Below are positions 45,312-60,664 of a stretch of DNA of 64,000 nt, in pieces; position 1 is the stretch's first letter; every line of letters begins with the position of its first letter. The stretch is from positions 8,164 through 72,163 of the forward strand of contig JAJEBT010000092.1 in the NCBI GenBank assembly GCA_022822405.1. The letters are read 5' to 3'. The notes below the pieces were generated by a model. The model had not been told where the DNA came from, ran no database searches, and saw only the letters and a list, made by a program, of their open reading frames with translations. A program made the position numbers and the translations under genes. Source of the stretch: Alphaproteobacteria bacterium. GTDB taxonomy: Bacteria > Pseudomonadota > Alphaproteobacteria > MPNO01 > UBA830.

Positions 45312-46745
45312 CTAGAGCACCTTGCCCGGATTCATGATTCCCCCGGGATCCAGGGCCGCCTTTATGGCCCGCATTACTTCGAGCGCTACCGGAGACTTGT
45401 AGGCCTTGAGCTCGTCGCGCCGCAACCGTCCGATGCCGTGTTCGGCGCTGATCGAGCCGCCCATGGCGACGGTACGGTCGTAGACCCGCTTGTGGATTTC
45501 AGGCCGGATTGCCAGGAATTCGGCATCCGTCATGCCTTCGGGGGCGCTGAGATTGAAGTGTATGTTGCCGTCGCCGACATGTCCGAAGGCGCAGGGGCGT
45601 ATGTTCGGAACCAGGCTGCTGAGGTCTGCGATCGCGTCGACCAGGAAGTCGGCGACCTTGGAGACTGGGACCGAAATGTCGTGCTTGATACTCGCGCCCT
45701 GGTGCCTCTGGGCCTCGGGAAGGACTTCGCGAATCTTCCAGAAATCTGCTGCCTGCCGTCCGCTTTCGGCAATCACGGCATCGAGAACCAGCCCGGTGGC
45801 AAACCCCTCGGTGAGAATGCCCTCGAGAAGATCGCGGAGGCCGTCCGCCGCCGCCTCGCCGGAGGCGATTTCCATCATCACATAGTGGTCATGACGCCCA
45901 TCCAGGGGGTCGCGGAGATCGTTGAAGTGGCCCAGCACGAAATCAAGGGCCTGACGCGAGATGTACTCGAACGTCACGACGCGGTCATCGGTCGCGCGCC
46001 GCGCTCGCGCCAGGAGTTCGACTGCCGCATGTTCGTCGCGCACGGCGAGAAAGGCGTTCCGGATATCGGCTGGCCGGGGAAAGAGCTTGAGGCAGGCGGC
46101 GGTGATGATGCCGAGCGTGCCCTCGGCCCCGATGAGCAGGTGCTTGAGATCGTATCCCGTGTTGTCCTTGCGCAACGCTGTCAGGCCGTTCCAGATGTCG
46201 CCGTTCGGCATGACAGCCTCAAGCCCGAGGCACAGATCCCGGGCCGGGCCGTAGCGCAAGACGCCGGTGCCGCCGGCATTGGTTGAGAGGTTGCCGCCGA
46301 TCCGTGCGGTGCCTTCGCCGCCAAGGCTGAGAGGAAAAAGACGGTCGGCCGCTTCGGCAGCCTGCTGGACCTCGGCGAGGATTACTCCGGCTTCAACAGT
46401 GATCGCGTAGTTGAGCGGGTCGATCTCACGGATCCGGTTCATGCGAGTGAGCGACAGCAAGATCTCGCCGCCGTGCTCGTGTGGCGTTGCCGCCCCGCAC
46501 AGGCCGGTGTTCCCGCCCTGCGGGACGATTGCGGTGCCGGTCTCGCAGCAGATTTTCACCACCGCCGAAACTTCGTCGACAGTGGCTGGGCGCACGACCA
46601 TGGGGGTGGCGCCTGTATAGTAACCGCGCTCGTCGGTGAGGTACGGCGCCTTGTCGGCGTCAGCGGTCAACACGCCCGCATCGCCTGTGACGGCGCGAAT
46701 GCGTTTCAGGACATCCTGCGGAATCGGCGCGGCAACAGCGGTCAT
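45312..46745 (-). CDS. FAD-binding oxidoreductase (GlcD / D-2-hydroxyacid dehydrogenase family)
   Basis: VVPQGGNTGLCG-type FAD-PCMH motif (IVPQGGNTGLCGAA) and C-terminal AEHGIG...LDPGGIMNPGKVL are present. SD GGTGGAGA lies before ATG 46745. Confidence 0.85.
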   Translation of the reverse strand: MTAVAAPIPQDVLKRIRAVTGDAGVLTADADKAPYLTDERGYYTGATPMVVRPATVDEVSAVVKICCETGTAIVPQGGNTGLCGAATPHEHGGEILLSLTRMNRIREIDPLNYAITVEAGVILAEVQQAAEAADRLFPLSLGGEGTARIGGNLSTNAGGTGVLRYGPARDLCLGLEAVMPNGDIWNGLTALRKDNTGYDLKHLLIGAEGTLGIITAACLKLFPRPADIRNAFLAVRDEHAAVELLARARRATDDRVVTFEYISRQALDFVLGHFNDLRDPLDGRHDHYVMMEIASGEAAADGLRDLLEGILTEGFATGLVLDAVIAESGRQAADFWKIREVLPEAQRHQGASIKHDISVPVSKVADFLVDAIADLSSLVPNIRPCAFGHVGDGNIHFNLSAPEGMTDAEFLAIRPEIHKRVYDRTVAMGGSISAEHGIGRLRRDELKAYKSPVALEVMRAIKAALDPGGIMNPGKVL

Positions 46746-46851
46746 GGGAATCTCCACCCCAAGAATTAGTGCATCCTGCCGCTCCGGGCAACGGCCTGGC
46801 GAGCGGAACCCTGTCGAAAAATGGTGCCGCTCGACTGGATAGGGATGTGCG

Positions 46852-47808
46852 TCAATCCCAGGGACCCGGCCGGCTGGCCCGACGCAGGCGGTCATTGATG
46901 GCCCGACCGAGCCCGTCCTCGGGAATCGCCATGACGGCTATGGCGCTGTGTTCCGGACGGTCGAGCGCACGCAGCATCGCGAAGAGATTGGCGGCGGCCT
47001 CGGTGAGGTCCCCGCCCGCGCTGAGGTTCAGCTCCTCCGATGCTCCGTCGATCTCATGGCGGCCGAATGCCAGCAGGGCCTCGCCGGGAGCGACTGAACG
47101 GGCTTCGAGCCGAACGGGAGAGCGGGGGGCGTAGTGCTGGCGCAACATGCCGGGCGACTGCACCGGCCCGTCGTCGTGTTCGCCGGCAACCTTCACGGGA
47201 CCGGCAATATCGGCAATGGCCTCGAAGGTAATGCCACCCGGCCTGAGGATCACGGGTTGACCGCCGCTGCAGGCTACCACGGTGGATTCGAGTCCGACGG
47301 GACAGGGACCATCATCGACGATCAGGAGCGCGTCGCCGAGCGAATCGGCCACATGCCGTGCCAGGGTCGGGCTCACTTCGCCGGAAGCATTGGCGCTCGG
47401 AGCTGCGATGGGGCATTGCGCTGCGGCAAGGATTGCTCGGGCAGTCTTGTGGGCGGGAACCCTTATGGCAACGGTGTCTAGCCCGGCGCAGGCAAGCAGG
47501 GAAATCTCGCAGTCCCGGCGGCGGGGTACGACGATCGAAAGCGCTCCGGGCCAGAAGGCATCCGCAAGCGCGTACGCCATCCGGTCGAAATCGCCGAGCA
47601 TGGCGGCCTCTTCAAAGCTTCCCACATGAACGATGAGAGGATTGAAGGCTGGCCGCCTCTTGATCTCGAAGATATGCGCAACGGCGGTATCCGAACAGGC
47701 GTTCGCGCCGAGGCCATAGACCGTCTCGGTGGGAAACGCGACGGCAGCGCCGCCGCGGATCAGCCGACCGGCCCGAGTGATGACCTCCGGTGAGGCGGGC
47801 TCGATCAT
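46852..47808 (-). CDS. tsaC: L-threonylcarbamoyladenylate synthase (Sua5/YwlC type, with C-terminal Sua5 domain)
   Basis: FPTETVYGLGA and KRRPAFNPLIVHV are present. ATGA overlap with the upstream cysQ-like stop. Confidence 0.9.
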   Translation of the reverse strand: MIEPASPEVITRAGRLIRGGAAVAFPTETVYGLGANACSDTAVAHIFEIKRRPAFNPLIVHVGSFEEAAMLGDFDRMAYALADAFWPGALSIVVPRRRDCEISLLACAGLDTVAIRVPAHKTARAILAAAQCPIAAPSANASGEVSPTLARHVADSLGDALLIVDDGPCPVGLESTVVACSGGQPVILRPGGITFEAIADIAGPVKVAGEHDDGPVQSPGMLRQHYAPRSPVRLEARSVAPGEALLAFGRHEIDGASEELNLSAGGDLTEAAANLFAMLRALDRPEHSAIAVMAIPEDGLGRAINDRLRRASRPGPWD

Positions 47809-48587
47809 TCCCGGCCGCGGGCGATGAATTCGGGATTGAGCCACCCCGGCTTGCCGTATTCGAGCGGATCTCCGTCCGCTGTCCAGACCGAGCCTCCGGC
47901 GCTGGCGAGCACGGCGTGGCCCGCAGCCGTGTCCCATTCGGAAGTCGGGCCATAACGGGGATAGATGTCCGCCACACCTTCAGCAATCAGGCAGAATTTA
48001 AGGGAGCTGTGGACATATCGATGCTCACGTGCTTGCAGTCCCCGAAGGAGGCCCTCAATTGCCGCCTTGTCGCCGTGGGATTTGCTCGATACGACGACAA
48101 CGCCGGCCTGTTGCGGTCTGCGCACGCCGATCGGGGTCCAGTCGCCGCCGGTTTCCCGTTTCTCCGCTGTCCCTGGCCCGCTGGCCCTGTAGAGGCGGCC
48201 CAATGCAGGAGCGGCGACCACGCCGAGCACTGGCCGGCAAGCGTGGATCAGCGCGATGTTCGTCGTGAATTCACCGCTGCCCTGGATGAAGCCCCGCGTC
48301 CCGTCGATCGGGTCAACAAGCCAGAAAGTTCCGTGGCTGCGCGCGTCGATCGCGCCTTGCGCCACTGTTTCCTCGCCTATTGCGGGTATGTCAGGCGTCA
48401 ACGCCGCGAGTTCGGCAAGGATCAGCTCTTCTGCACGTTCGTCGGCTTCGGTAACCGGCGTTGCATCCTCCTTCTCGCGCACATCGAGACCGGTCTCGTA
48501 GAGTTCGGTAATGAGGATGCCTGCGCGCTCCGCGATTTCCGTTGCGGCCAGCATCAGCGAACGGAAATGCTCCGCGTGAACTCCCAA
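47805..48587 (-). CDS. cysQ: Inositol monophosphatase family protein, probably 3'(2'),5'-bisphosphate nucleotidase CysQ
   Basis: WLVDPIDGTRGF and EWDTAAGHAVL are present. A TTG start immediately after the SDR stop has a GGGAG SD 8 nt upstream. The alternative is ATG 48554. Confidence 0.7.
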   Translation of the reverse strand: MGVHAEHFRSLMLAATEIAERAGILITELYETGLDVREKEDATPVTEADERAEELILAELAALTPDIPAIGEETVAQGAIDARSHGTFWLVDPIDGTRGFIQGSGEFTTNIALIHACRPVLGVVAAPALGRLYRASGPGTAEKRETGGDWTPIGVRRPQQAGVVVVSSKSHGDKAAIEGLLRGLQAREHRYVHSSLKFCLIAEGVADIYPRYGPTSEWDTAAGHAVLASAGGSVWTADGDPLEYGKPGWLNPEFIARGRE

Positions 48588-49436
48588 TCAGTTGGCTCCC
48601 GGCCACACGGCCTGGGTGCCGGCATCCGGCCAGGCTGCCGGAGCGCAAACAGCTCTCGCCGCTTCATCCGGGTCAAGCGAGGCATCCCAGTTGCTTGCGA
48701 CGAAACGGCTGTTCGTTATACCGTCCGAACGGTCGGAAGCGAGCCATACGACGGGGCCGGTCATCACCTCGGGCTGCACCAGCTTGTCGCGGTCGAAAGG
48801 AGCGCTTTCAGGAATGAATCCCGTATTGGTCGGGCCGCCCGGCACCAGGACGTTGACGCTGACGCCGCTGCCCTCAAGGTCCTTCGCCCATGTCGCGGTG
48901 CCGGATTCCAGCGCGGCCTTCGACTGGCCGTAGGGCGAGTAGTTGTGACGGATCATCGTATCGAGGCTCGTCGTGACGTTGATGATGCGGCCCCAGCCCT
49001 GTTCGACCATCGATTCGGCAACGAGCTTGGCCATCATGAACGGCCCTTTGAAGTTGATGTCCATCATCCGTTGCCAGCGGTCGAGATCGGCCAGCCAGAA
49101 TTTGGCCGGTTCGTTCATGTAGTTCTCGTTTATGGTCTGCATGCCGACGCCGGCATTGTTGACCAGGACGTTGACGGGACCGAGTTCCTTTCGGGTGACT
49201 TCGACGACGCGCGCGCAGTCGTCGAAGTCCGTCACGTCGAATGCGATCGGGAGTATGGTTCCGCTGTTTGTCGTCTTGTGCGCTTCGTCGGCGATCTTGT
49301 CGGCCGCATCCCGGTTCACGTCGGCGGCGCAGACGCTGGCACCGTGCGAGGCCAGGGCTAGCGACATCGCGCCACCCATTCCACCGCCGCCACCGGTGAC
49401 GATGGCAACCTTTCCCTCAAGATCGATATTGTGCAT
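48588..49436 (-). CDS. SDR family oxidoreductase
   Basis: TGGGGGMG, NNAG and YGQSKAA (YxxxK) are present. ATG 49436 was chosen because it places the TGGGGGMG cofactor motif at the usual distance from the N-terminus. Confidence 0.85.
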   Translation of the reverse strand: MHNIDLEGKVAIVTGGGGGMGGAMSLALASHGASVCAADVNRDAADKIADEAHKTTNSGTILPIAFDVTDFDDCARVVEVTRKELGPVNVLVNNAGVGMQTINENYMNEPAKFWLADLDRWQRMMDINFKGPFMMAKLVAESMVEQGWGRIINVTTSLDTMIRHNYSPYGQSKAALESGTATWAKDLEGSGVSVNVLVPGGPTNTGFIPESAPFDRDKLVQPEVMTGPVVWLASDRSDGITNSRFVASNWDASLDPDEAARAVCAPAAWPDAGTQAVWPGAN

Positions 49437-49660
49437 GTTTTCCGGCCCCTTTCTTCGGACGAGCATTCTAGTCTTGGGCTCCGCGGGCAGCAACGCCGTC
49501 TCCGGTCGTGCTGGTCCCGATTACGGTGCTGGCAGGTTCGATTCGAACGGGAACAAGCTCCAACGTGCTTTGGTCGGTGCAATAAACGTCCCGAACATGC
49601 GGCATATGATGACGGGTGTCCGGCGGCATATTTTCTGCGGCCTGGATGGTGCTTCGGGCC

Positions 49661-50404
49661 TCAGGCGATAGCCAGGGCAGCGGCGCTGGCAACAAGGAGG
49701 ACGGTGATGAGCCATCTGAAGATGCTTTCCGGCACCGCACGGCCAAGCAGGTATCCGGTCAGTGTTCCCGCGAGCGCCGGAAAAAGCAGTGCTGCACACA
49801 TCGGCGCCGCGCGCTCCGACACGCCGGACATCCCCGCCTGCATGGCCAGGGCGACCGGGTAGGCGAAGAGAAACGTTACAAGCGTCGTTGCTCGGATCGT
49901 TTCCTTGCCGTGCCGGAGGGCGGTAGCGTAGGCGGCAACCGGAGGGCCGGGCATCGCGAGGGTGGCCGTCAGCGCTCCGCTCAGTGCGCCGGTCGCGAGC
50001 CGGCGTACGTCGTTGTCGCGCCGAAAGAGCGGATGACGCTCGAGAAAGCCGGTGGAAATGGCCGCCATGGCCAGCACTGCCGCAGCTGCCCCCCATTTCA
50101 GATTCTGCAACGACACATGTGAATACGTCACCGCGCCGGCGATCGCGCCCAGGCATATGCCAAGAGACAGGGGTTTCAGTAGTGACCAGTCGACTCTTGG
50201 CAGGGTGCTCGGCGAGAGCGCCAGCGCGATCGCGAAGCTCAGGACGATCGTTACCTGAATGGCGGCGGAACTGTCCATGAAGACGAGCAGCGCCGGACCT
50301 GCGATCAGGCCGAAGCCGAGTCCCGTCACGGCCTGCAGAAGCGCTGCCGAGAAGACGATGGCAACAAGAAGCACGGAGACGTCGGGCAAGTCGATCGCCG
50401 GCAT
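49661..50404 (-). CDS. TauE/SafE family sulfite / organosulfonate exporter
   Basis: A polytopic membrane protein with the family N-terminal LLQAVTGLGFGLIAGPAL and an internal repeat (LSGALTATLAMPGPP). Confidence 0.85.
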   Translation of the reverse strand: MPAIDLPDVSVLLVAIVFSAALLQAVTGLGFGLIAGPALLVFMDSSAAIQVTIVLSFAIALALSPSTLPRVDWSLLKPLSLGICLGAIAGAVTYSHVSLQNLKWGAAAAVLAMAAISTGFLERHPLFRRDNDVRRLATGALSGALTATLAMPGPPVAAYATALRHGKETIRATTLVTFLFAYPVALAMQAGMSGVSERAAPMCAALLFPALAGTLTGYLLGRAVPESIFRWLITVLLVASAAALAIA

Positions 50405-50502: not shown

Positions 50503-51927
50503 TCAGGAAAAGACAACCTGGATGTCCGTGTATTCCTGCAAGCCCTCTTCCGCGAATTCGACACCGAAGCCGGAGCGCTTGACGCCGCCGAACGGGGCAT
50601 TGGGCTGGATCATCCCGTGCTTGTTGATCCAGACGGAACCGCACTCCATGCGGCTGGCAATCTTTCTCGCCTTGTCGACATTGCGGCTCCAGACCGAACC
50701 ACCGAGACCGTTCGGGTTGTCGTTCGCCTTGTCGATTGCCTCCTCGACGCGGCGGTAGCGAATTACCGGGAGGACCGGGCCGAACTGTTCCTCGTCGACA
50801 AGGCGGTCTCCGTTGTCAAGATCGGCGATGATCGTTGGCGGGTAGAAATAACCCTTCTCGCCCAGTTTCCTGCGGAGCTTGGCGGGGTTGCCGCCGAGGA
50901 GCACGCGTCCCTTGCGTTTCGCGTTGCGCACCAGCCCGGCAACGATGTCATACTGCCTTTCGTTCTGGACCGGGCCGATCACGACATCTTCGGCACTCCC
51001 CTTGCCGATCTTCATCTTCCGGGCAAAGGCGACAAGTTCGTCGCAGACATCGTCATAGACATCGTCGTGAACATAGAGTCGCTTGAGCGCCGCGCAGGTT
51101 TGGCCACCGTTGATGAAGGCTCCCCAGAACAACCCCTCGGCGATCTCGCCCGGATCGACATCGCCAAGCACGATGCCGGCATCGTTGCCGCCGAGCTCGA
51201 GCGTCAGCCGCTTCATGGTCTCGGCCGCGTTCGCCATGATCTTCTGACCGGTGGCGCATGAGCCGGTGAAAACGATCTTGCCGATGCCCTCGTGCGAAGC
51301 CATAGCCGCGCCCAGCTTGTCCTTGCCGGCAATGCAGTTGACGACCCCTTTCGGCAGAACCTCGTTCATGAGTTCAATCAGGCGCAGCGTCGACAGGGGC
51401 GTAAAGGGCGAGGGCTTGCATATCACGGTGTTGCCCGAAAGCACGGCCGGGATGATGTGCCAGATCGCGATCAGGACGGGAAAGTTCCACGGCGTGATCG
51501 AGCCGACGACGCCGATCGGTTTGCGGTGGAGCTCGACCCTGCCTTCGTTGTTGTCCTGAAGGACCTTGACGGGCAGGGAAAGGCTCGCCGTGTAGCGGGT
51601 CCAGGCTACGGCGCCCCCGATCTCCCAGCGCGAACCGAGGCCGTTCAGGGGCTTGCCCTGTTCCCTGGTGAGTAGCTGGGCGAGTTCCTCTGCGTTCTTC
51701 TCGATCTTCGAAGCGATCTTCATGCAGGCAGCCTGCCTGCGAGCCTCGGGCACGTCGCGCCATTTCTCGAATGCCCTCTCGGCGGCGCCGACGGCGGCGT
51801 CAAGATCTTTCTTCCTTGCGAGCGGCGCAAGCCCGGCAACCTTCTCATCGGCCGGATTGAGAACCTCGAAGCACTTCCCGGTCGGAATTTTCTTGCCGTT
51901 AATGACGAGGCGGAACGGGTCCATCAT
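50503..51927 (-). CDS. NAD(P)-dependent aldehyde dehydrogenase
   Basis: ITPWNFP, LELGGND and the catalytic region NGGQTCAA are present. Confidence 0.9.
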   Translation of the reverse strand: MMDPFRLVINGKKIPTGKCFEVLNPADEKVAGLAPLARKKDLDAAVGAAERAFEKWRDVPEARRQAACMKIASKIEKNAEELAQLLTREQGKPLNGLGSRWEIGGAVAWTRYTASLSLPVKVLQDNNEGRVELHRKPIGVVGSITPWNFPVLIAIWHIIPAVLSGNTVICKPSPFTPLSTLRLIELMNEVLPKGVVNCIAGKDKLGAAMASHEGIGKIVFTGSCATGQKIMANAAETMKRLTLELGGNDAGIVLGDVDPGEIAEGLFWGAFINGGQTCAALKRLYVHDDVYDDVCDELVAFARKMKIGKGSAEDVVIGPVQNERQYDIVAGLVRNAKRKGRVLLGGNPAKLRRKLGEKGYFYPPTIIADLDNGDRLVDEEQFGPVLPVIRYRRVEEAIDKANDNPNGLGGSVWSRNVDKARKIASRMECGSVWINKHGMIQPNAPFGGVKRSGFGVEFAEEGLQEYTDIQVVFS

Positions 51928-51936
51928 CCAACTCCT

Positions 51937-53265
51937 TCAGTTTCTCTTCCGCGGCTCGACTCCGTCGTGCCAGTCGCGGAAGTGGTTCTTATGGGTCTCC
52001 AGATAGGCGCCCGGTTTCATGTGGGCGTCGTAGAAATCGAGATCGAGGTGGTGAGCCTGGATCATCAGCGTCATCTGGATCGCGTCGACCGTCGCGGGAA
52101 ACTTTCCGAACGTATCGAGGATATAACCGCAGATGTCCTTGACGCACTGCACACCCTCGGGCGATGCCTGCATCGTGGCTGCGTCGAATTCCGCGTTCGG
52201 CGCCGTGTGCGGCTTGAGCATGCCCCGCGCCTCCCAGTCATCCATGCTCATCGTTGCGCCCTCGATAGCGGCCTCGACGGCCGAATCCATGTCGGGATAG
52301 TAGGGCGGGCAGAACGCCTCGAAGACGCCGTCGCGACCGACCGGGGCGGGAAACGGGTCGGAGGCCGACTGCACGAAACGAAAACCTAGGCCGCGGCAGG
52401 TCGGCGTCCCGCCCAGCACCACGAGCGAGGAAAAGCCGCCATAGACCCAGCCTCCAAGTCCCGCCGCCTGCATTGCGAGCGCCATCAGCTGTCCCATGAA
52501 CGCGCCTTCGGCGAGCATGCCGTCCGAGAGCATTTTCTCAAGCCGCGACAACGGCATCACCTTGCGTTTCGAAAGGAAGCCGTTGTCCACCCATTTCTGG
52601 TTGCCGCAGGGACGCATGCCGTTGCGGTCGTCGACTATGTAGTAGCCGCCCTCTCGCGCGTAGCGGCCGGCCTTCGAATCGCAGAGGTTGAGGATCAGCT
52701 TGATCATGTCCTTGGTCACGTCGATGACCGGCATGAACAGCGTCGTTCCCTGCTTGTTGGTTACCCACTGGTTGTGCGGCCAGACACCGGGCTCGACACC
52801 CGGAAGGTCCATGCGGCCGTCCTCAAGCTTCTCGACGCAGGTTTCGTAGAAGCCAAGGATTTTGTCGCGGTCGCTGCGGTGTTCGTATTCGCGCATCTTC
52901 GTCATCGCCACCTGATCGGAACGGATGACATAGACACCGTTGTCGTCGGTGAAGAAGAGGCGGGCGCGGTGAGAGCCCATGGCCGACGGGTAGGGCTTGC
53001 CGATCGTCTTGACCATTCCGCCCGGCAGCTCGGTCTCCGCCAATATCGGACCGGTGGTCGCCGTTGCAGCGGCCACGAGCATCGCCGTCTCGAGGCTGTC
53101 AAGCCCCACCGGCTCCTTGTCGGAGCGATGCTGGAACGGGCCGCTCGACATTTCCATGCCGAGGCCGAAGCGCCGGGACCGCCGGCCCATGATCGCGTCG
53201 AACAGCGGATAGTCCCACATCGCCTCGGCATGCGGCGGCAGGCCGCCAGGTTTGCGCTCAACCAT
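51937..53265 (-). CDS. Hypothetical protein with nitroreductase-superfamily-like signatures (about 442 aa)
   Basis: RRSRRFG lies near the N-terminus and QLMALAMQAAGLGGWVYGGFS about 230 residues later. Codon bias is like neighbouring genes. ATG 53265 overlaps the stop of the 80-aa ORF (ATGGTTGA). I recognise no named family. Confidence 0.6.
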   Translation of the reverse strand: MVERKPGGLPPHAEAMWDYPLFDAIMGRRSRRFGLGMEMSSGPFQHRSDKEPVGLDSLETAMLVAAATATTGPILAETELPGGMVKTIGKPYPSAMGSHRARLFFTDDNGVYVIRSDQVAMTKMREYEHRSDRDKILGFYETCVEKLEDGRMDLPGVEPGVWPHNQWVTNKQGTTLFMPVIDVTKDMIKLILNLCDSKAGRYAREGGYYIVDDRNGMRPCGNQKWVDNGFLSKRKVMPLSRLEKMLSDGMLAEGAFMGQLMALAMQAAGLGGWVYGGFSSLVVLGGTPTCRGLGFRFVQSASDPFPAPVGRDGVFEAFCPPYYPDMDSAVEAAIEGATMSMDDWEARGMLKPHTAPNAEFDAATMQASPEGVQCVKDICGYILDTFGKFPATVDAIQMTLMIQAHHLDLDFYDAHMKPGAYLETHKNHFRDWHDGVEPRKRN

Positions 53266-53500
53266 CGGACCCGCCCCGCCGGCGTCCACCGAGCAATGCG
53301 TAGGGCAGGAGTTTCAGGGCATGAATCCAGAAGGACGGGCTGCAGGCGGTCAGTCGCAGGAGCGCCAGCATGTCATCACGATCCATCAGTGTTTCGGCCT
53401 CCCAGACGCCCATCTTTCCAGTCAGGACGACATCGGTTCCCGCGATCCTGAGATCGTCGATATGGAACTCGAACTCGCCGGCGGCTGACGCGATCTTCAT
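53258..53500 (-). CDS. Small hypothetical protein (80 aa)
   Basis: A strong SD (GGGGAGA) lies 4-5 nt before ATG 53500. The ORF fills the gap between the SnoaL-like gene and the 442-aa gene and is translationally coupled to the latter. Confidence 0.45.
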   Translation of the reverse strand: MKIASAAGEFEFHIDDLRIAGTDVVLTGKMGVWEAETLMDRDDMLALLRLTACSPSFWIHALKLLPYALLGGRRRGGSDG

Positions 53501-53522
53501 CCCTGTCTCCCCATCTGCGGTC

Positions 53523-53954
53523 TCATGGAATCATCTTCCAGTACGCGTCCTTGCGTGCGATCAAGCCGTCGCGGATCTTGTAGAGATCCATCCCTCTCGA
53601 TTTCCGCCATTTCCCGTCGGGCCCCATGTAGGAGACGCGGTAGGTCTGGATCACCGTGCGGCCGCGGAAGCGCCAGACGGAACGGCTGAATTTCGGGCCG
53701 TTCGGCATCGCGAACCGGCGCTCCATGGCGGCGATGGCGTTTTCCCGGCCATAGACGATCTCGCCGTTCGGGAGCCGCCATTCGAAGGAGGGCAGGAGGC
53801 ACTCGGCCATCAACTTCATGTCCTGGTTGAGAAAGGCCTCCTCGAACCGGGCAAACAGTTTCCGGTGAGCGAGTTCGGGAATCGCATCGACCGGCGTCGG
53901 ATCCTGGCGGATTTCCTCGATCTGCTGGCCCGATGTGTTTCTGACGATCTTCAT
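53523..53954 (-). CDS. SnoaL-like / NTF2-fold protein
   Basis: The size (143 aa) and pattern F.EAF...D...M...L...F.W..P.G....G......A ... D.Y.I.DG.I are typical of SnoaL-like polyketide-cyclase-fold proteins. Confidence 0.7.
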   Translation of the reverse strand: MKIVRNTSGQQIEEIRQDPTPVDAIPELAHRKLFARFEEAFLNQDMKLMAECLLPSFEWRLPNGEIVYGRENAIAAMERRFAMPNGPKFSRSVWRFRGRTVIQTYRVSYMGPDGKWRKSRGMDLYKIRDGLIARKDAYWKMIP

Positions 53955-54102: not shown

Positions 54103-55407
54103 TCACCGTCCGAGGGTCGGCAGGACGGTGACGATCTCGGGCACCGCGACCACGAGCGCAATGAGCGCAAGCAGTGCGGCGCAGAACGGCAGAACGCCCA
54201 TGAACACCTGGGCGAGCGGGATGTCGGCGGCGAGGCCGCGGATCACGAAGACATTGATGCCCATTGGCGGCGTTATCAGCGCGAGCTCGACGGCAATGAC
54301 AACGATGATGCCGAACCAGACCGCGTCGAGACCCATGGAGGAGACGATGGGGAAGAAGATGGGTATCGAAAGGATGATCATCGCCATCGTGTCGAGGAAG
54401 GCGCCGAGAAGAATGTAGATGCCGATGATCAACACCACCGTCATCAGGGGCGAGAGATCGAGGCCGACGATCCAGCCGCCGAGCAGAGCCGGCGTGCCGC
54501 TGAGCGACAGGAAGCCCGAAAACAGGATGGCGCCGATCAGGATCAGGAAGATCATGGACGTCGTCTGAACCGTGTCCATCAGGCACTCGAGGATTTCGGC
54601 AATGCCGAGCCGGCGCATCGCGGCGCCGATCGCCAGCGCCCCGACGGCGCCAATGCCCGCAGCTTCGGTGGGGGTGAATATCCCGGCATAGATTCCGCCG
54701 ATCACGAGAACGAAGAGCGCCAGCGTGGGCCAGATTTTGCGCAGAATGGCGGGATCGGAGACGGCAGCGGCTTCGCTGGACAATTGCGGAGCGCTCGACG
54801 GATCGATCCGGACGATCGCCAGAACCGCGATCATGAAGAACAGCGTGAGAAGGATTCCCGGTATCACGCCGGCGATGAACAGGTCGCCGATGCTGGTCTC
54901 GGTGAGGAGGCCGTAGATCAGCATGATCACGCTGGGTGGAATAAGGATGCCGATGGTCCCGCCGGCAGCTATCGCCCCGGTGGCAAGCCTGTCACCGTAT
55001 CCGAAACGGCGCATTTCGGGCAACGCCACGCGGCCCATCGTTGCCGCCGTGGCGAGTGAGGACCCGCACACCGCGCCGAAGGCGGCGCAGGCCGCTATGC
55101 TGGCCTGGGCAAGGCCCCCGCGGCTGCGCCGGAGCCAGACATTGAAGGCCGCGTAGAGATCGGAACTGATCCCGGACCTTGCGGCAAAGTCCCCCATCAG
55201 CACGAAAAGGGGGATGACGGCGAGATCGAAGCTCTGGGCGGATTCAAAGACCGATATTCCGGCAAGCGAGAGCGCGGCGTCGGGCCCGACGATCATGGCG
55301 GTGCCGAACATCGCCGCCCCGGACATTGCGAGCCCGAGATGCGCGCCGAGAAACAATGCACCGAACAGGAGTGCGAAAACGAGCGGCACCAGAACGCCGG
55401 TTTCCAT
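54103..55407 (-). CDS. dctM: TRAP transporter large permease
   Basis: A 434-aa polytopic protein with the typical DctM start and FVLMGDFAARSGISSDLY. Confidence 0.9.
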   Translation of the reverse strand: METGVLVPLVFALLFGALFLGAHLGLAMSGAAMFGTAMIVGPDAALSLAGISVFESAQSFDLAVIPLFVLMGDFAARSGISSDLYAAFNVWLRRSRGGLAQASIAACAAFGAVCGSSLATAATMGRVALPEMRRFGYGDRLATGAIAAGGTIGILIPPSVIMLIYGLLTETSIGDLFIAGVIPGILLTLFFMIAVLAIVRIDPSSAPQLSSEAAAVSDPAILRKIWPTLALFVLVIGGIYAGIFTPTEAAGIGAVGALAIGAAMRRLGIAEILECLMDTVQTTSMIFLILIGAILFSGFLSLSGTPALLGGWIVGLDLSPLMTVVLIIGIYILLGAFLDTMAMIILSIPIFFPIVSSMGLDAVWFGIIVVIAVELALITPPMGINVFVIRGLAADIPLAQVFMGVLPFCAALLALIALVVAVPEIVTVLPTLGR

Positions 55408-55413
55408 GCTTCT

Positions 55414-55914
55414 TCAGTCCCCGGACCGGTTCCGCACCGCCGACAGGTCCCCGATCAGGCGCACGAGCAGGACGATGAGGAACATGCCTATGCCGACGCA
55501 CATGACGATTGCGGTGGGCCAGAACGGCAATTCCCAGATCTGGGTGTATTCCTGTTCCTCGACGATCTCGCCGGTCTTGATCAGAAGCCTCCATGCGAGG
55601 AAACCGGTGACGACCACTGCGAGCAGGGAATTGACGATCTCCGACAGGCGGCGCGCCGGGCGCGGAAACAGCGTCTGGAAGGTTTCGACGACGATGTGCC
55701 GGCGATGGATTTCCGTGAGTGCGAGACCGCAGAACACGAGGATGCCCATCATCAGTTCGACGCTTTCGACGGTGCCGACGAGTGCGCGCCCGAAGAACGT
55801 CCTGCCTATGACGTCGAGGAACGTCATGACCATGATGGCGGCAAGCGCAAGGGAGGCGAAGCGGGCGAGCCACAGGGCGGCCCGCCCGATCGCCCCGCTC
55901 ATCGCCGGGAACAT
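55414..55914 (-). CDS. dctQ: TRAP transporter small permease
   Basis: 166 aa with four TM helices. FLDVIGRTFFGRAL is a DctQ-type motif. It lies between dctP and dctM. Confidence 0.8.
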   Translation of the reverse strand: MFPAMSGAIGRAALWLARFASLALAAIMVMTFLDVIGRTFFGRALVGTVESVELMMGILVFCGLALTEIHRRHIVVETFQTLFPRPARRLSEIVNSLLAVVVTGFLAWRLLIKTGEIVEEQEYTQIWELPFWPTAIVMCVGIGMFLIVLLVRLIGDLSAVRNRSGD

Positions 55915-55929: not shown

Positions 55930-56943
55930 TCAGAGACCGGCGACGATCTTGCGGTAGTCCGCCAGCAGCGCCTTGCCGTCCAGGCCCGCCTTGTCGGCTT
56001 TTTCGATCCAGGCATCCGTTATCGGCTGCACCATCTGCTTCAGCTTGGCGGTTTCCGCATCGCTGAGCACCGTGATCGTGTTGCCGTTGGCCTTGGCGGC
56101 GTCGCGTCCCGATTTTTCGGCAGCATCCCATTTCCTGGAGATGAAGCGCGATCCCCATTCTCCACTGACCTTGTCGACTGCGGCTTTCTGGCCGGCGGAG
56201 AGCTTTGCCCATGTCTTGGGGCTCATCGTGAGAAAGAAGATGCCTGCATAGGTGCCGCCGGGAATCTTCAGGTGATGCGACGTCACGCCGGCAAGGCGGA
56301 AGCCCTTGACCGACTCCCACGGGAACTGCGACGCGTCGAGCGTGCCCTTGGCCAGCGCCTCGTTGGTGGCTCCTGGCGGCATGAAGACCGGGACGGCGCC
56401 GACAATCTTGGCGATCTTTACTCCGTTGCCGCCGGTCCGGATTTTCATGTTTTTGAAGTCCGCGAGCTTGGTCAGCGGCTTGGCGCTGTGATAGAGATGC
56501 GGTGCATGTGCGAACAGGGCAAGAAGCTTGGTGTCGGCCGTGTCCTTCGCCATGAAGCCGTGCTTCTTGTACCACTGCCAGGCGGCCACTCCGGCAGCCT
56601 CCGCGGTCGGCGCCGCGAACGGCGTCTCGACTGCCATCAGCTTCCAGAACCGCTTCGGATGGTATGCCGCAACACTCCAGGCGATGTCGACGATCCCTTT
56701 CTTGGCGAGATCGTATTGCCCGTCAGGCTTGGCGAGCGGAGCGGTCATCACTTCCACCTTGATTTCACCGCCCGAGGCTTTCTCGAGTTCGCTGGCCCAT
56801 GCGCCGAGCGTGGCCGACATGTGGTGAACCGGAGGCAGCCAGTTGGCCAGCCTCAATTTGGTGGCCGCCCGGCCGTCCTCTGCGGTCAGCAGCATCGCGG
56901 CAGCCATGAGGCCGGCGACAAGCATGCAGCATCTCTTCATCAA
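55930..56943 (-). CDS. dctP: TRAP transporter substrate-binding protein (DctP family)
   Basis: A signal peptide is present, then KLRLANWLPPVHH, a DctP-type fold and the expected length. Confidence 0.9.
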   Translation of the reverse strand: MMKRCCMLVAGLMAAAMLLTAEDGRAATKLRLANWLPPVHHMSATLGAWASELEKASGGEIKVEVMTAPLAKPDGQYDLAKKGIVDIAWSVAAYHPKRFWKLMAVETPFAAPTAEAAGVAAWQWYKKHGFMAKDTADTKLLALFAHAPHLYHSAKPLTKLADFKNMKIRTGGNGVKIAKIVGAVPVFMPPGATNEALAKGTLDASQFPWESVKGFRLAGVTSHHLKIPGGTYAGIFFLTMSPKTWAKLSAGQKAAVDKVSGEWGSRFISRKWDAAEKSGRDAAKANGNTITVLSDAETAKLKQMVQPITDAWIEKADKAGLDGKALLADYRKIVAGL

Positions 56944-57202
56944 TCTCTCCCTGGTTCTCGCGGCTGCAGTCCGGAACTCTCGCCGTCACCGGCGGGCCGG
57001 TATTGTGTCTTTGCAGCCGCAGGGTTGTCCGTACAGATTTCATGCTAGGTGAGAACGGTGCCAGCTGTCAATTTTTCCGGATCCGGGTTGTTGGCTGGCC
57101 GGTAATCCACAACCCCCTGTGGACAAGTATGCTCGGATGCCGACGGCTCCGTCCGGCCGAGCGAAATGTCGACAACGGCGGCCGGCGGACGATGCGCTCC
57201 GG

Positions 57203-57751
57203 TCAGAGCAGCAGAAAGGCGCCGCCAAACAGGCCAAGTGGCCAGTGGCCTGCCATGAAATGCCGGAGCTTGATGCGGAAGGGGTGGGTATCGGCTGTCC
57301 CGGCAAGGACCGCCAGCGAGGCCTGGTGAACTGCTTCCCCGGCAGCACCGGCAGCGCTTGCGGCAAGGCCCGGATCGGAGACAGCAGCGTGCGTCAACGA
57401 GGCGGTCGCATCGGTGAGCGCCCGGTCGCCGGCGGCGAGGAGGATCGCGGACAACCGCCGTGCGACGGAGCGTTCGGCAAGGACGGCGGCGATGCGCGCC
57501 GTCAGGGCCCGCTGCTCTGCCTGTTCGGCCGTCCACCAGGATCGGTTCCAGGCCTCGCGCCGAAGAGCGGCGCCCGCGGCCTTCCACTCCTCGACGGTTT
57601 CCACACGGCCGGCCGGTTGTCCGAGACCCTCGAGATAGAGCCCGATTTCCCGGATCGTGGCCGGAGGGGCGCCGGAGCCTGTGGCAGAGAACCAGCTGGC
57701 GCCGCCGAGATCCTCCTCGAAACGGGCAAGTATCAGGTCGGGACGGGACAT
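57203..57751 (-). CDS. Hypothetical protein (182 aa, Ala-rich, hydrophobic C-terminus)
   Basis: The start lies 12 nt after the stop of the diiron protein gene and in the same orientation. I recognise no motif. Confidence 0.5.
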   Translation of the reverse strand: MSRPDLILARFEEDLGGASWFSATGSGAPPATIREIGLYLEGLGQPAGRVETVEEWKAAGAALRREAWNRSWWTAEQAEQRALTARIAAVLAERSVARRLSAILLAAGDRALTDATASLTHAAVSDPGLAASAAGAAGEAVHQASLAVLAGTADTHPFRIKLRHFMAGHWPLGLFGGAFLLL

Positions 57752-57763
57752 GCGCGGGCGGTG

Positions 57764-58477
57764 TTAGCCGGCGATGGCGGGAAGCCGCAGCCCGAGCCGA
57801 TGCTCGACGAGTTCGCGCACGCGGCTCATGTAGTCGTCGCGCATCTCGTCATTGGTCCGCATCTTGATGCTCCACTTGCGGTAGATCTGGTTGTTGACGG
57901 ATCCGGATCGACCGAAAAAGGCAGGCATCGCGGGAAACATCCGGTCGAGGGCTTCCTGGACGGCTTGGCGGCCATCCTCGGTCTCGATGAGGTCCGAGCA
58001 GAAATCCTCGCCGAACTGCGAGTGGAAGCGCTCTTCGGGCATGGTCATGCGCGCCAGGTTTCGCAGCGGGTGGAACGAGCAGTGAAGCAGATCCTCGACC
58101 TGCAGGATTTCGGCAAGATCGCCGATCGCCTTGATGACGCAGAACTCGGGCCAGCTGTCGAGATCGTATTCGAAGATGCTTAGCGGGCGCTTGGCGCTGG
58201 TCTGAGGGATCATGTCCTCTTCCGCGATCCCGATCTCCCGGCCGAGCTCGAAGAACCGCACATGGTGGCCGTATTCCTCCATTGCAATTCGGCATGTGAG
58301 CCATTTGGCGTACGGGGTCGGCGCAAGGGCGATTGCGGGCTCGTCGAAGACCTGGGATCCATAGAGCTCGTTGATGGCGTGGCTGAGCACAATCTTCCGG
58401 ATGGCCGTCTGGTACTCCTCGGGCTGCTCGCGGAATTCCTCCGCGGTTCTGACTTCCGGCTTGCTTTCCTCGTTCAT
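57764..58477 (-). CDS. Ferritin-like diiron protein of the phenylacetate-CoA oxygenase PaaA/PaaC family, stand-alone
   Basis: Diiron ligand set: AINE, MEEYGHH (ExxH), GDLAE, PEERFH (ExxH). The length is 237 aa. Confidence 0.7.
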   Translation of the reverse strand: MNEESKPEVRTAEEFREQPEEYQTAIRKIVLSHAINELYGSQVFDEPAIALAPTPYAKWLTCRIAMEEYGHHVRFFELGREIGIAEEDMIPQTSAKRPLSIFEYDLDSWPEFCVIKAIGDLAEILQVEDLLHCSFHPLRNLARMTMPEERFHSQFGEDFCSDLIETEDGRQAVQEALDRMFPAMPAFFGRSGSVNNQIYRKWSIKMRTNDEMRDDYMSRVRELVEHRLGLRLPAIAG

Positions 58478-58486
58478 GGACTCTTC

Positions 58487-59428
58487 CTATACGTCCGGTT
58501 CGGTATTGAACCGTTCGAGATCGGTGGCAAGGTCGGCAAAATGACCGCGGAACCGCGCATTGACGATCTCGGTCAGGCCATCATGCGACCAGCGGCTGTC
58601 CGCGCATACCGTCGTGTGCTTGGCGTCCGCCTGCGAAAACAGCATGAGTTCCCGTCCGCGCACACCGAAGAGCTGGCCGGTGACGTCGCGGGCGTCCTCC
58701 GAACAGAGCCAACCCACGAAATCCGCGACATGGTTGGCGGGAACCTTCATCGCGCGCGCCTTGTAGCGTTCCTGGGCCTCATTGGCCGGCACGATCATTT
58801 CGGTGACGCGGGTGCGGGCGAAGGGAGCCACGGCGTTCGACGTGACGCCGGACCGCGCCATGTCGAGGGCGGCGATGCGCGTGAGCGACAGCAGCCCGCC
58901 CTTGGCGGCGGCATAGGGCGCTTGCCCGTAATTGCCCACGAATCCCGCGGTCGAGACGATATTGACGATCCTGCCCCAGTGACCCCCGCCGCGGCCGGCT
59001 CGCGCCTGTTCGCGCATGACCGGAGTGGCGGCGGCAAGCAGGTGATAGGGGCCGGAGAGATTGTTGCGGATCACGGCCTCCCAGTCGGCTCCACTGCCCT
59101 TGAAGATGAAGGCGTCGCGAAGAATCGCTGCGTTGTTGACGACAATGTCGAGGCCGCCGAACCGCTCCATGGCGAGCTCGACGACGGCCGCGGCTGCGGC
59201 CGGAACGGACATGTCTTCTGCATGGGCTACGGCGCGCTCCCCGAGACCCGCCGCAAACGTCGGTGCGACGGCCGGATCAGCATCGTTGCCGGAGATGTTG
59301 ACGCCGCTGTCGGCGATCACCACCGCCGCGCCGTCCGAGACCAGTCTCGTGCTGATCGCTGCGCCGATGCCGCGGGCGCCGCCGGTGACGACGGCAACCC
59401 GGCCTTCGAGCCGCGGGCCAGAGTTCAT
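58487..59428 (-). CDS. SDR family oxidoreductase with extended C-terminal region (multifunctional-enzyme-2 dehydrogenase-domain-like)
   Basis: TGGARGIG, NNAA and YAAAKGG (YxxxK) are present. A 313-aa protein with the GQLFGVRG tail typical of the MFE-2-like SDR subgroup. Confidence 0.85.
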   Translation of the reverse strand: MNSGPRLEGRVAVVTGGARGIGAAISTRLVSDGAAVVIADSGVNISGNDADPAVAPTFAAGLGERAVAHAEDMSVPAAAAAVVELAMERFGGLDIVVNNAAILRDAFIFKGSGADWEAVIRNNLSGPYHLLAAATPVMREQARAGRGGGHWGRIVNIVSTAGFVGNYGQAPYAAAKGGLLSLTRIAALDMARSGVTSNAVAPFARTRVTEMIVPANEAQERYKARAMKVPANHVADFVGWLCSEDARDVTGQLFGVRGRELMLFSQADAKHTTVCADSRWSHDGLTEIVNARFRGHFADLATDLERFNTEPDV

Positions 59429-59537
59429 GGCGAGTTATCCCGCAAGAGGCACTTTCCGATGCCCGCGAGCATCGGTCTTACTCCGCAATATCGGGCCATG
59501 GCAATACGCCCGACCGGCGCGTCGGTTCGGGAAGGCC

Positions 59538-60401
59538 TCAAGGCGCCGCGCGTTCGGGCCTTGTGCCCTTGCAGGTCGTGCGCCGAAGCAAGCGCCGTTC
59601 GTTGGCGCCGAAATCGGTCCGCGCGTGATTGGTGCAGCGGTTGTCCCACATCACGAGATCGCCCGGCGTCCACACGTGGCGGTAGACGTTTTCGGCACGT
59701 TCAGAGTGATCAAACAGGCGAAAGAGGAGGTCCCGTCCCCGGTCCTCGCCGAGCCCGATGAGGCGCCGCGTCAGCATGCGGCTGACATAAAGCACGGTCC
59801 TCGACGATTCCTCGTGGCGGATGAGCGCCGGGTGGCGGGCGGAACCGCTGTGACCGGTGACCCGCAGCGCGATCTTCATCTCCTCGGTCACGTCCGGTCC
59901 GGCGTAGAAGCCGTGTTCGGCATCGATGTCCGCCAGCAGTTCCTTCAGATCGTCGGGAAGCGTTTCGTATGCCGCGTACATGTTGGCGAACAGCGTGTCG
60001 CCGCCAGTCTTCGGGACCTCGATGGCGTAGAGGAAAGTATAGCGATACGGAACCGCCTCGTAGGAGCCGTCGGTGTGAAAGAACATCTCGCCGTCGGGGA
60101 TGGAGCCGATGACCTCGCCGTTCTCGCGGATGTTGGAGACCAGCATCACGGACTTGTGAAGTTGATCGTCCGCCTTTGTGCCGCGGGAATGTACGCCCCT
60201 GTCGGGCAGGTCGCCGAAACGCAGCGTGAATTCAACCTGCTCCTCGTCGGTCAGATCCTGATCCGGGAACACGAGGACAAGATGTTCCAGCATCGCGGAG
60301 TGAATGATCCCGAAAGCGTCGTCGCCGAGCGGCTTCGAGAGGTCGATGCCTGTGATCGAGGCGCCAAGCGCATCTGAAATAGGGGTTACGGCAATCGTCA
60401 T
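59538..60401 (-). CDS. TauD/TfdA family Fe(II)/2-oxoglutarate dioxygenase
   Basis: FHTDGSY (HxD), WDNRCTNHAR (distal His/Arg) and N-terminal ITGIDLS are present. ATG 60401 was chosen. The longer ORF call adds an Arg/Pro-rich extension. Confidence 0.9.
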   Translation of the reverse strand: MTIAVTPISDALGASITGIDLSKPLGDDAFGIIHSAMLEHLVLVFPDQDLTDEEQVEFTLRFGDLPDRGVHSRGTKADDQLHKSVMLVSNIRENGEVIGSIPDGEMFFHTDGSYEAVPYRYTFLYAIEVPKTGGDTLFANMYAAYETLPDDLKELLADIDAEHGFYAGPDVTEEMKIALRVTGHSGSARHPALIRHEESSRTVLYVSRMLTRRLIGLGEDRGRDLLFRLFDHSERAENVYRHVWTPGDLVMWDNRCTNHARTDFGANERRLLRRTTCKGTRPERAAP

Positions 60402-60664
60402 GTCGCGATCCGGTGGATGTGGATGGCAGGGTAGGGGATGCGGCCGCCGCCGTCCAGTTTTCGGATGCTGGCCGGCGCGGGCTGCACGGGTCGAAGACAG
60501 CGGCGCGATGTGGCGACCGTGGAGAGAACGGGACGTTTCCGTTATAAGAGTCTGATTCAGCGCGACGATGCGATCAGGTGGCGGATCGAGCGCATCATCG
60601 CGGAGCAGGGTCGGCATTGTTCGGCGGAGCGGCTGGAAGCGCGCCGCCGGATATGTCCGCGTGA

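Follow-up and report, generated by a model that had tools for sequence, protein, structure and literature searches.

A conserved gene pair for a putative two-subunit relative of the nitroreductase superfamily in an alphaproteobacterial TRAP importer and aldehyde dehydrogenase gene cluster

Results

A 64,000-nucleotide stretch of the genome of an Alphaproteobacteria bacterium (assembly GCA_022822405.1, contig JAJEBT010000092.1, positions 8,164 to 72,163; here called the window) carries two overlapping genes, for proteins of 442 and 80 amino acids (aa), between genes for a tripartite ATP-independent periplasmic (TRAP) importer and genes for an aldehyde dehydrogenase (ALDH) and a TauE permease. 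An earlier reading of the sequence (the original prediction) had described these two genes and a SnoaL-like gene as an uncharacterized three-gene module. The trio does recur near TRAP and ALDH genes, but the deeply conserved unit is the pair of 80-aa and 442-aa genes; SnoaL is limited to one clade, and the SnoaL, TRAP, ALDH and TauE genes are a clade-specific shell around the pair. Remote homology and a predicted fold suggest that the pair is a double-sized, two-subunit variant of the nitroreductase superfamily. We estimate a probability of roughly 0.5 that the two proteins form a flavoenzyme that acts oxidatively on an imported anion, perhaps a sulfonate, and yields a product at the level of an aldehyde or formaldehyde. 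The two genes are as follows.

51937..53265, minus strand: 442-aa divergent nitroreductase-superfamily-like protein, putative flavin mononucleotide (FMN)-binding catalytic subunit (remote homology)
53258..53500, minus strand: 80-aa conserved partner, likely small subunit (homologs, hidden Markov model [HMM], AlphaFold2 model)

A large protein family without a name

Scans of Pfam-A and NCBIfam at E ≤ 1 gave no match for either protein, and a PDB sequence search with both returned nothing, so that both lie outside named families, as had been proposed. The 442-aa protein could not be matched with confidence to any characterized family, every homolog name in NCBI, UniRef and JGI reads "hypothetical protein," and in the literature we found no description of the 442-aa family, nor of a nitroreductase-fold demethylase or desulfonase. 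The family comprises 1,098 matches in a 90%-clustered database (nearly all 420 to 450 aa), 2,002 clusters at 50% identity (E ≤ 1e-3; typically 400 to 480 aa) and >585 loci in species-representative genomes of at least eight phyla. Its hosts span Alpha- and Gammaproteobacteria, Chloroflexota/Dehalococcoidia, Thermodesulfobacteriota, Binataceae, Dadabacteria, Myxococcales and Spirochaetia, and those in culture include Ruegeria marina (strain CGMCC 1.9108, where the pair is WP_093037515 and WP_093037512), R. sediminis, Shimia biformata and Tropicibacter. A second 442-aa open reading frame (ORF) of the window (36142-37470) is not a paralog.

One member among the 50%-identity representatives (P0222, 863 aa) is a natural fusion in which a rubber-oxygenase/MpaB-type oxygenase domain at the N terminus (MPAB_Lcp_cat, E 8e-27) precedes a 442-aa family domain at residues 427 to 859. 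The fusion is a further hint of oxidative chemistry in the family.

The 442-aa protein is a remote relative of FMN nitroreductases

The AlphaFold2 model of the 442-aa protein, made with 37 homologs, has a predicted local distance difference test (pLDDT) score of 81.9 and a predicted template modeling (TM) score of 0.84. Almost all of the top ~45 matches of this model in a Foldseek search of the PDB belong to the nitroreductase superfamily. The best is 3hoi (E 6.4e-3, probability 1.00, target-normalized TM score 0.53), followed by 3hj9 and 8cqs, and the list also holds the oxidase-type proteins BmdC, ThcOx, McbC and AlbA together with NfsA, BluB and iodotyrosine deiodinase. The resemblance to ThcOx (E 0.16) and McbC (E 0.17) is weak, and a Foldseek search of a viral library with the model returned nothing. 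In the model, the predicted alpha+beta core superposes on that of the superfamily (PF00881; NfsA, Frp, NfsB, BluB, iodotyrosine deiodinase and BF3017 [3hoi]).

Sequence profiles point the same way. A profile of close homologs reached only E values of ~1 to 2 in the PDB, for NfsA and Frp. A diverse profile (alignment A4, 56 family members at 24 to 75% identity) matched Frp at 2e-4, NfsA at 1e-3 and 7e-3, NfrA1 at 3e-3 and AlbA at 0.011, with ~22 of its 26 listed matches coming from the nitroreductase superfamily. Five distant family members gave PF00881 matches over the same segment that stay below threshold (E 0.002 to 0.08; 13.6 to 18.9 bits, cutoff 23.5). These data support the view that the 442-aa protein is a remote relative of the FMN nitroreductase superfamily that has kept the core of the fold, and it is as remote homology that the nitroreductase-fold guess of the original prediction holds.

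Two motifs carry most of the conservation. RRSRRFG lies at residues 28 to 34 and QLMALAMQAAGLGGWVYGGFS at residues 257 to 277; across the 56 sequences R32 and G269 are invariant, and R29, N260, L263 and G271 are nearly so. These residues sit in an N-terminal RRSxRxF motif and in a QN..LA..GLGG segment (GLGGW in the window protein), both of which align with FMN-binding elements of Frp and NfsA, the second with the stretch "...QN..LAAE.MGLGG." The corresponding residues contact FMN in the NfsA and Frp structures. Judged by this alignment, both FMN-binding motifs are retained in the family, and the 442-aa protein is a putative FMN-binding protein.

Members of the nitroreductase superfamily are single-domain proteins of about 170 to 250 residues that form homodimers with FMN bound at the interface, whereas the protein of the window has 442 (420 to 480 in the family). 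A tandem duplication giving a pseudo-dimer was rejected as the source of the double size, since an hhalign self-comparison revealed no internal repeat (probability 1.4%). The size is instead explained by ~100 residues inserted between core elements (roughly residues 134 to 244) and by a ~140-residue C-terminal domain that begins at ~300, in agreement with the insert and the C-terminal extension seen in the original prediction. In the C-terminal domain, P390, H406 and Y412 are invariant family-wide. A Cys/His metal site in this domain (C374, C379) was rejected, as it is conserved only in close relatives and not family-wide. Two further differences from the superfamily are an obligate-looking 80-aa partner and a gene context that suggests oxidation of a transported metabolite rather than reduction of nitro compounds or quinones.

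The 80-aa partner is conserved with the large gene

The two genes overlap by 8 nucleotides (nt), the TGA of the 80-aa ORF and the ATG of the 442-aa ORF (53265) both lying inside ATGGTTGA. The 80-aa ORF has a Shine-Dalgarno sequence, GGGGAGA, 7 to 13 nt ahead of its ATG at 53500, and the spacer from the TGA of the 442-aa ORF to the ATG of the ALDH gene is 9 nt, AGGAGTTGG. The ORF positions, the Shine-Dalgarno sequence, the overlap, the spacer and both motifs of the large protein are all as first described. An alternative GTG start at 53289 would make the large ORF 450 aa, but the alignment of homolog N termini favors the ATG at 53265, and an independent gene caller reported the same two genes in a metagenome scaffold that encodes this exact 442-aa protein.

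The 80-aa ORF has 36 database homologs of 70 to 82 aa, down to 41% identity. Its N-terminal 40 residues are near-invariant (M-K-I-x-S-A-A-G-E-F ... G-K-M-G-V-W-E-A-E-T), and, by this conservation, it is a real gene, far beyond what chance would give. An HMM built from the 36 homologs was used to scan within 10 kb of the large gene at 80 loci, which we sorted by identity to the 442-aa protein of the window into clades of at least 75% (19 loci plus the window), ~57% (18 loci) and 40 to 46% (43 loci). The partner was matched at 56 of the 80 loci, across phyla and in varying gene order:

At least 75% clade: partner at 18/19 loci, directly upstream of the large gene
~57% clade: partner at 18/18 loci, directly upstream in 17 and 5 kb away in one (L025)
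40 to 46% clade: partner at 20/43 loci, directly downstream (L067, L075, L078, L082) or 1 to 2 kb away on the opposite strand

The ORF is intact at all of the partner-bearing loci of the two upper clades (18/19 and 18/18), and partner-bearing loci come from Proteobacteria, Thermodesulfobacteriota, Dadabacteria, Binataceae, Myxococcota and Chloroflexota. Because the linkage outlives changes of gene order across phyla, and because the two genes look translationally coupled in the window, these data suggest that the 80-aa protein is a second, small subunit alongside the 442-aa protein.

The AlphaFold2 model of the partner (pLDDT 76.5) shows a four-strand beta-meander (residues 2 to 39) followed by two helices, the last of them hydrophobic or amphipathic, and Foldseek found no significant structural relative for it. 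Biotinyl-domain-like proteins were among the nonsignificant matches, and GKMG resembles a carrier lysine hairpin, but a role as such a carrier was rejected because many proteins of the ~57% clade have Arg in place of K29.

The sole locus of the at least 75% clade without a partner (L011, 1-1160) has a HlyD-like gene on the other strand in place of the upstream region. Its large protein has unusual substitutions, for example GSLRTRLFF, and this locus may be a decaying copy.

The closest organizational parallel is cyclodipeptide oxidase

AlbA/AlbB cyclodipeptide oxidase (CDO) likewise consists of a nitroreductase-fold flavoprotein and a small orphan protein encoded by overlapping genes; AlbB helps form the active site, and AlbAB is an O2-dependent dehydrogenase (PMC11055893). 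The pair in the window shares this two-gene organization (CDOA/CDOB; PDB 8uc3), and AlbA is among both its profile and its Foldseek matches. The analogy is organizational and does not extend to homology of the small subunits, as AlbB is a four-helix bundle (PF19585; PMC11055893) and a mostly beta fold is predicted for the partner in the window. AlbA has 196 aa, and CDOs belong to biosynthetic clusters with a cyclodipeptide synthase (CDPS), unlike the pair, which lies in a transporter-ALDH catabolic operon.

The parallel raises the possibility that the pair is a dehydrogenase that modifies peptides or heterocycles, of the SagB/McbC/ThcOx or AlbAB type, in which the 80-aa protein would serve as precursor peptide, recognition element or AlbB-like scaffold. 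The presence of BmdC, ThcOx, McbC and AlbA among the Foldseek and profile matches would fit, as would the small, obligate partner encoded by an overlapping gene in AlbAB (PMC11055893). However, ~90 neighborhoods hold no cyclodehydratase, YcaO, CDPS, nonribosomal peptide synthetase or other machinery for ribosomally synthesized and posttranslationally modified peptides, and the SagB-type model TIGR03605 was unmatched in the NCBIfam scan. The partner, with four strands, two helices and no Pfam match, does not resemble the PF19585 bundle, and its near-invariant first 40 residues are unlike a precursor-peptide core. The context is one of transport and catabolism, which already largely refutes this explanation, and we consider it highly improbable.

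The pair lies in a module that differs between clades

In the window, the other genes of the module and its surroundings are the following, from the possible start of the operon onward.

57042..57071, minus strand: possible operon start, promoter-like site TTGACA-18-TAGCAT, 10/12 (consensus scan)
55930..56943, minus strand: dctP, TRAP solute-binding subunit, 337 aa (ORF; NCBIfam TRAP_S1; Pfam DctP in the same scaffold)
55414..55914, minus strand: dctQ, TRAP small membrane subunit, 166 aa (Pfam DctQ in the gene calls of the source scaffold)
54103..55407, minus strand: dctM, TRAP large permease, 434 aa (NCBIfam dctM, 321.7 bits, cutoff 268)
53523..53954, minus strand: SnoaL_2/DUF4440 (NTF2-like) protein, 143 aa (Pfam)
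50503..51927, minus strand: NAD(P)-dependent ALDH, 474 aa (Pfam Aldedh, E 4e-146)
49661..50404, minus strand: TauE/SafE (TSUP) family anion permease, 247 aa (Pfam TauE, E 2.5e-23)
48588..49493, minus strand: short-chain dehydrogenase (SDR), 301 aa, module membership doubtful (Pfam adh_short)

The promoter-like site lies ~100 nt upstream of dctP and is weak (2 sites in the region, 1.5 expected by chance), and no convincing terminator interrupts the gene string from dctPQM onward; the two observations are weak evidence for a single operon. The PDB relatives of DctP are TRAP binding proteins (E 1e-49 to 1e-40). The Pfam families SnoaL_2, Aldedh and TauE bear out the labels first given to the other three genes: the 143-aa protein matches PF12680 SnoaL_2 (E 1.2e-11; 45.5 bits, cutoff 27) and DUF4440 (39.4 bits, cutoff 25.2), and the 247-aa permease matches PF01925 (83.4 bits, cutoff 32.6). 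The structure 8yen is a relative of the ALDH. Neither the permease nor the ALDH reached an NCBIfam equivalog; the best models for the ALDH, all below cutoff, were those for aminobutyraldehyde, phenylacetaldehyde and betaine-aldehyde dehydrogenases.

In the at least 75% clade, the pair is again found beside TRAP and ALDH genes, in the order (TetR)-DctPQM-SnoaL-small-large-ALDH-TauE. SnoaL is present at 18/19 loci, ALDH and DctM at 17/19 each, TetR at 16/19 and TauE at 14/19. The ALDH gene starts 9 to 56 nt after the large gene in 17/19, and the TetR gene is missing from the window and from its nearest relative (L004, 96% identity). SnoaL occurs in no locus of the other clades examined. DctM is common to 17/19 loci, but close relatives of DctP and DctQ of the window are found at only 4/19; the DctP and DctQ of the window and of L004 come from another lineage than those of most of the clade. 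The binding-protein lineage thus appears to have been swapped inside an otherwise conserved module, and for this reason substrate specificity may differ between subclades. Apart from the window, only 2/19 loci (L004 and one other) have the 301-aa SDR gene beside the module.

Two loci of this clade have unusual surroundings. In Ruegeria marina (L001, FMZV01000025.1) the full block from TetR to TauE is bracketed by a phage-type integrase and DDE/insertion sequence transposase fragments (L001 465-3219 and 11804-12937), so the block looks self-contained and the module may be mobile as an island. In a Rhodospirillales-like metagenome-assembled genome (L088, 4898-5623 and 12528-12755) the ALDH is a 75-aa fragment and TauE has moved beside TetR, an arrangement that could reflect either decay of the module or an assembly artifact.

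None of the 18 loci of the ~57% clade has SnoaL, TRAP or ALDH genes. Here the operon encodes an NMT1-type binding protein, a permease, an ATPase, a permease, a TauE protein (373 aa), an ATPase, two small ORFs, the partner, the large protein, GcvT and a Crp-family regulator, with FolD or FTHFS genes nearby. ALDH and GcvT neighbors were told apart by length, position and Pfam. At 16/18 loci, the gene for a 375-aa GcvT starts 43 to 108 nt beyond the end of the large gene; in two Dehalococcoidia loci (45% identity), a GcvT gene lies directly upstream of it. Among NCBIfam models, the GcvT of the ~57% clade scores best with GcvT proper (279 bits) and then with the C-terminal domains of SoxA and Tdm, which capture formaldehyde or iminium (~213 bits), and it is farther from DmdA (144 bits) and LigM/DesA (~75 bits). 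The best models for the binding protein are SsuA-family aliphatic-sulfonate binders, at 61 to 72 bits with a threshold of 163.5. The TauE proteins of the two clades (247 aa in the window, 373 aa here) have no pairwise similarity (E 0.3), which suggests that TSUP permeases were recruited twice independently.

The two small ORFs of these operons (141 to 143 aa and 69 to 88 aa) are conserved between the second ABC ATPase and the partner (L086 7105-7787; L085 19747-20413). They match no Pfam or NCBIfam model and are possibly membrane proteins.

In the 40 to 46% clade, members from Thermodesulfobacteriota and Dadabacteria lie beside a D-2-hydroxyacid dehydrogenase gene, with the partner, AroE, RibF and Trk genes on the other strand.

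An aldehyde- or formaldehyde-releasing oxidation is the favored function

The gene next to the large gene offers the main clue to function. An ALDH or a GcvT gene adjoins it in 33/37 loci of the two upper clades, and because the slot holds either an ALDH or a formaldehyde-capturing GcvT, we infer, as the strongest step of our argument, an oxidation that releases an aldehyde or formaldehyde. An ALDH in the slot would correspond to an aldehyde from a substrate of at least two carbons, and a GcvT to a formaldehyde equivalent from a methyl substrate. The original prediction had placed the action of these proteins on the imported substrate ahead of the ALDH step. That proposal is strengthened by the replacement of ALDH with GcvT in the ~57% clade, and it still stands as an argument from gene context.

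In the pathway that we favor, the 442-aa protein would be the large subunit, highly divergent within the FMN nitroreductase superfamily, and the 80-aa protein the small subunit, without known relatives. The TRAP system would import a small anionic substrate. The flavoenzyme, aided in the at least 75% clade by the NTF2-like SnoaL protein, would oxidize a heteroatom-bearing carbon (C-N or C-S), with loss of the leaving group and formation of an aldehyde, and the ALDH would turn this aldehyde into an acid, while the TauE/SafE permease would export an anionic by-product or end product such as sulfite or a sulfo-acid. In the ~57% clade, the same pair would act on a methyl-bearing substrate, and the adjacent GcvT would capture the formaldehyde-level one-carbon (C1) unit on tetrahydrofolate (THF).

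Oxidative chemistry on this fold has precedent, since the nitroreductase superfamily includes the O2-dependent dehydrogenases AlbA, ThcOx, BmdC and McbC as well as BluB, an example of flavin-dependent O2 activation. Most characterized members of the superfamily are reductases, and the 442-aa protein could accordingly be a conventional NAD(P)H-dependent reductase of the nitroreductase type (for nitro groups, quinones, enones or flavin) that acts on the imported compound or a by-product, with ALDH and GcvT serving unrelated steps. Its best profile matches, Frp, NfsA and NfrA1, are indeed NAD(P)H:flavin and nitro reductases, and the module encodes no external electron acceptor. Such a reductase, however, would leave unexplained why the next-door gene encodes an ALDH in one clade and a formaldehyde-capturing GcvT in another. 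Foldseek places the oxidase-type BmdC, ThcOx, McbC and AlbA as high as the reductases, and the segment matched by the profiles is an FMN-binding helix and strand, which is silent on the direction of the reaction. On balance, we find a conventional reductase unlikely.

The 442-aa protein might also be a flavin-free member of the fold that has lost catalysis and serves a structural, regulatory or chaperone function, perhaps for the transporter; its proximity to ALDH or GcvT genes would then be incidental. Its extreme divergence and lack of a PF00881 match are compatible with such a role, as are the housekeeping-like contexts of the 40 to 46% clade and the C-terminal hydrophobic or amphipathic helix of the partner, which could touch the membrane. 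Yet the Arg motif for the FMN phosphate and the GLGG segment are invariant or nearly so from 24 to 75% identity, and ~440 aa are strongly conserved across phyla, as is typical of an enzyme. Translational coupling to ALDH or adjacency to GcvT at those same 33/37 loci also speaks against an incidental linkage. We therefore judge a flavin-free role to be quite improbable.

Several observations weigh against the proposed flavoenzyme pathway. The 442-aa protein of the window has no significant sequence match to any nitroreductase in PF00881, NCBIfam or the PDB; the structural E values are marginal (best 6e-3, with a target-normalized TM score of ~0.5); and its matches include no characterized homolog. 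Flavin is absent from some nitroreductase-like proteins, for instance those of the mycobacterial Acg family. The module contains no gene for an electron acceptor or a reductase. The hint of a sulfonate is soft: TauE/TSUP proteins have ill-defined substrates, the SsuA score of 72 bits falls short of the cutoff of 163, and another NMT1-type ABC importer, in L073, lies beside a PdxR/MocR-like regulator. Many members of the 40 to 46% clade lie in housekeeping-like neighborhoods of anaerobes (also beside DnaJ), about half of this clade has no partner, and an alphaproteobacterial subgroup that has no partner adjoins such a regulator and importer. Because this clade is housekeeping-like in context and about half partner-less, O2 dependence and a catabolic role should not be generalized to the whole family.

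Candidate substrates and related pathways

Organosulfonates are the leading candidate substrate class, because TauE/SafE permeases seem to have been recruited twice independently and because the ~57% clade has an SsuA-like importer. Within the flavoenzyme pathway, we tentatively consider an oxidative C-S desulfonation, either R-CH2-SO3- -> R-CHO + sulfite or methanesulfonate -> formaldehyde + sulfite. A second possibility, put forward with similar reserve, is that an amino- or N-methyl-sulfonate is cleaved oxidatively at a C-N bond and a sulfo-acid is exported, as in the SafD/SafE route. That the substrate belongs to another class seems unlikely.

The oxygenases SsuD/MsuD, TauD and MsmABCD, which desulfonate alkanesulfonates, and the SafD/SafE route from taurine to sulfoacetate resemble the module in small-anion import, an aldehyde or formaldehyde product, an ALDH and a TauE/SafE exporter, and the sister clade adds the SsuA-like importer. 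In contrast, the 442-aa protein has no sequence or fold relation to the luciferase-like, Fe/2-oxoglutarate or Rieske enzymes, and the module has no Xsc, sulfite dehydrogenase or flavin reductase gene, its link to these systems being membership in transporter families and the subthreshold SsuA score.

The placement of the pair beside GcvT in the ~57% clade and in the Dehalococcoidia, with FolD/FTHFS nearby, is the standard arrangement for formaldehyde or iminium capture seen with oxidative demethylases and dealkylases such as sarcosine oxidase (SoxA), dimethylglycine oxidase and the TMAO demethylase Tdm. Unlike in those systems, the GcvT here is a separate polypeptide, and the 442-aa protein is dissimilar to their FAD (DAO-type) or DUF1989 catalytic domains.

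The pair may represent an unrecognized two-subunit class on the nitroreductase fold that cleaves C-S or C-N bonds oxidatively, for example a fourth independent route of alkanesulfonate or methanesulfonate desulfonation that yields an aldehyde or THF-captured formaldehyde plus TauE-exported sulfite and is widespread in marine and soil Alphaproteobacteria; we regard this broader view as doubtful but worth stating. The family is large and has neither a name nor a Pfam or NCBIfam model. If the proposal is true, a superfamily already unusually diverse in chemistry would gain a double-sized branch that has an obligate small subunit. Should the substrate prove to be an organosulfonate or a methylated amine, the family would close a gap in marine sulfur or C1 cycling to which current gene-centric surveys are blind. 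The system is experimentally tractable: cultured Ruegeria and Shimia strains carry importer, enzyme, ALDH and exporter together as a self-contained island, and methylotroph-like Alphaproteobacteria offer a C1 version linked to folate.

Other genes around the module

Several genes flank the module in the window. Downstream, an inositol-monophosphatase/CysQ-like ORF (47805-48587, minus strand) starts right where the SDR gene (48588-49493) stops, an arrangement suggestive of translational coupling, and a Sua5/TsaC gene comes next (46852-47937). The wider region is flanked by two genes for FAD-linked oxidases (FAD_binding_4/FAD-oxidase_C, GlcD-like) at 45312-46895 (minus strand) and 60665-62353 (plus strand), and a large AidB-like acyl-CoA dehydrogenase is encoded at 43490-45262.

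Upstream of dctP, the interval 57203-60617 (minus strand) holds a 182-aa ORF without a Pfam match and genes for a 237-aa PaaA/PaaC-like ferritin-type protein, a 313-aa SDR and a 359-aa TauD/TfdA-family dioxygenase. The nearest NCBIfam models for the dioxygenase are PtlD and taurine dioxygenase, both below cutoff. The TauD-like, SDR and PaaA-like genes were considered as part of the module and dropped, as they are not conserved with it; the one exception is L004, which has the TauD-like gene. The upstream genes may instead make up a small oxidative cluster of their own.

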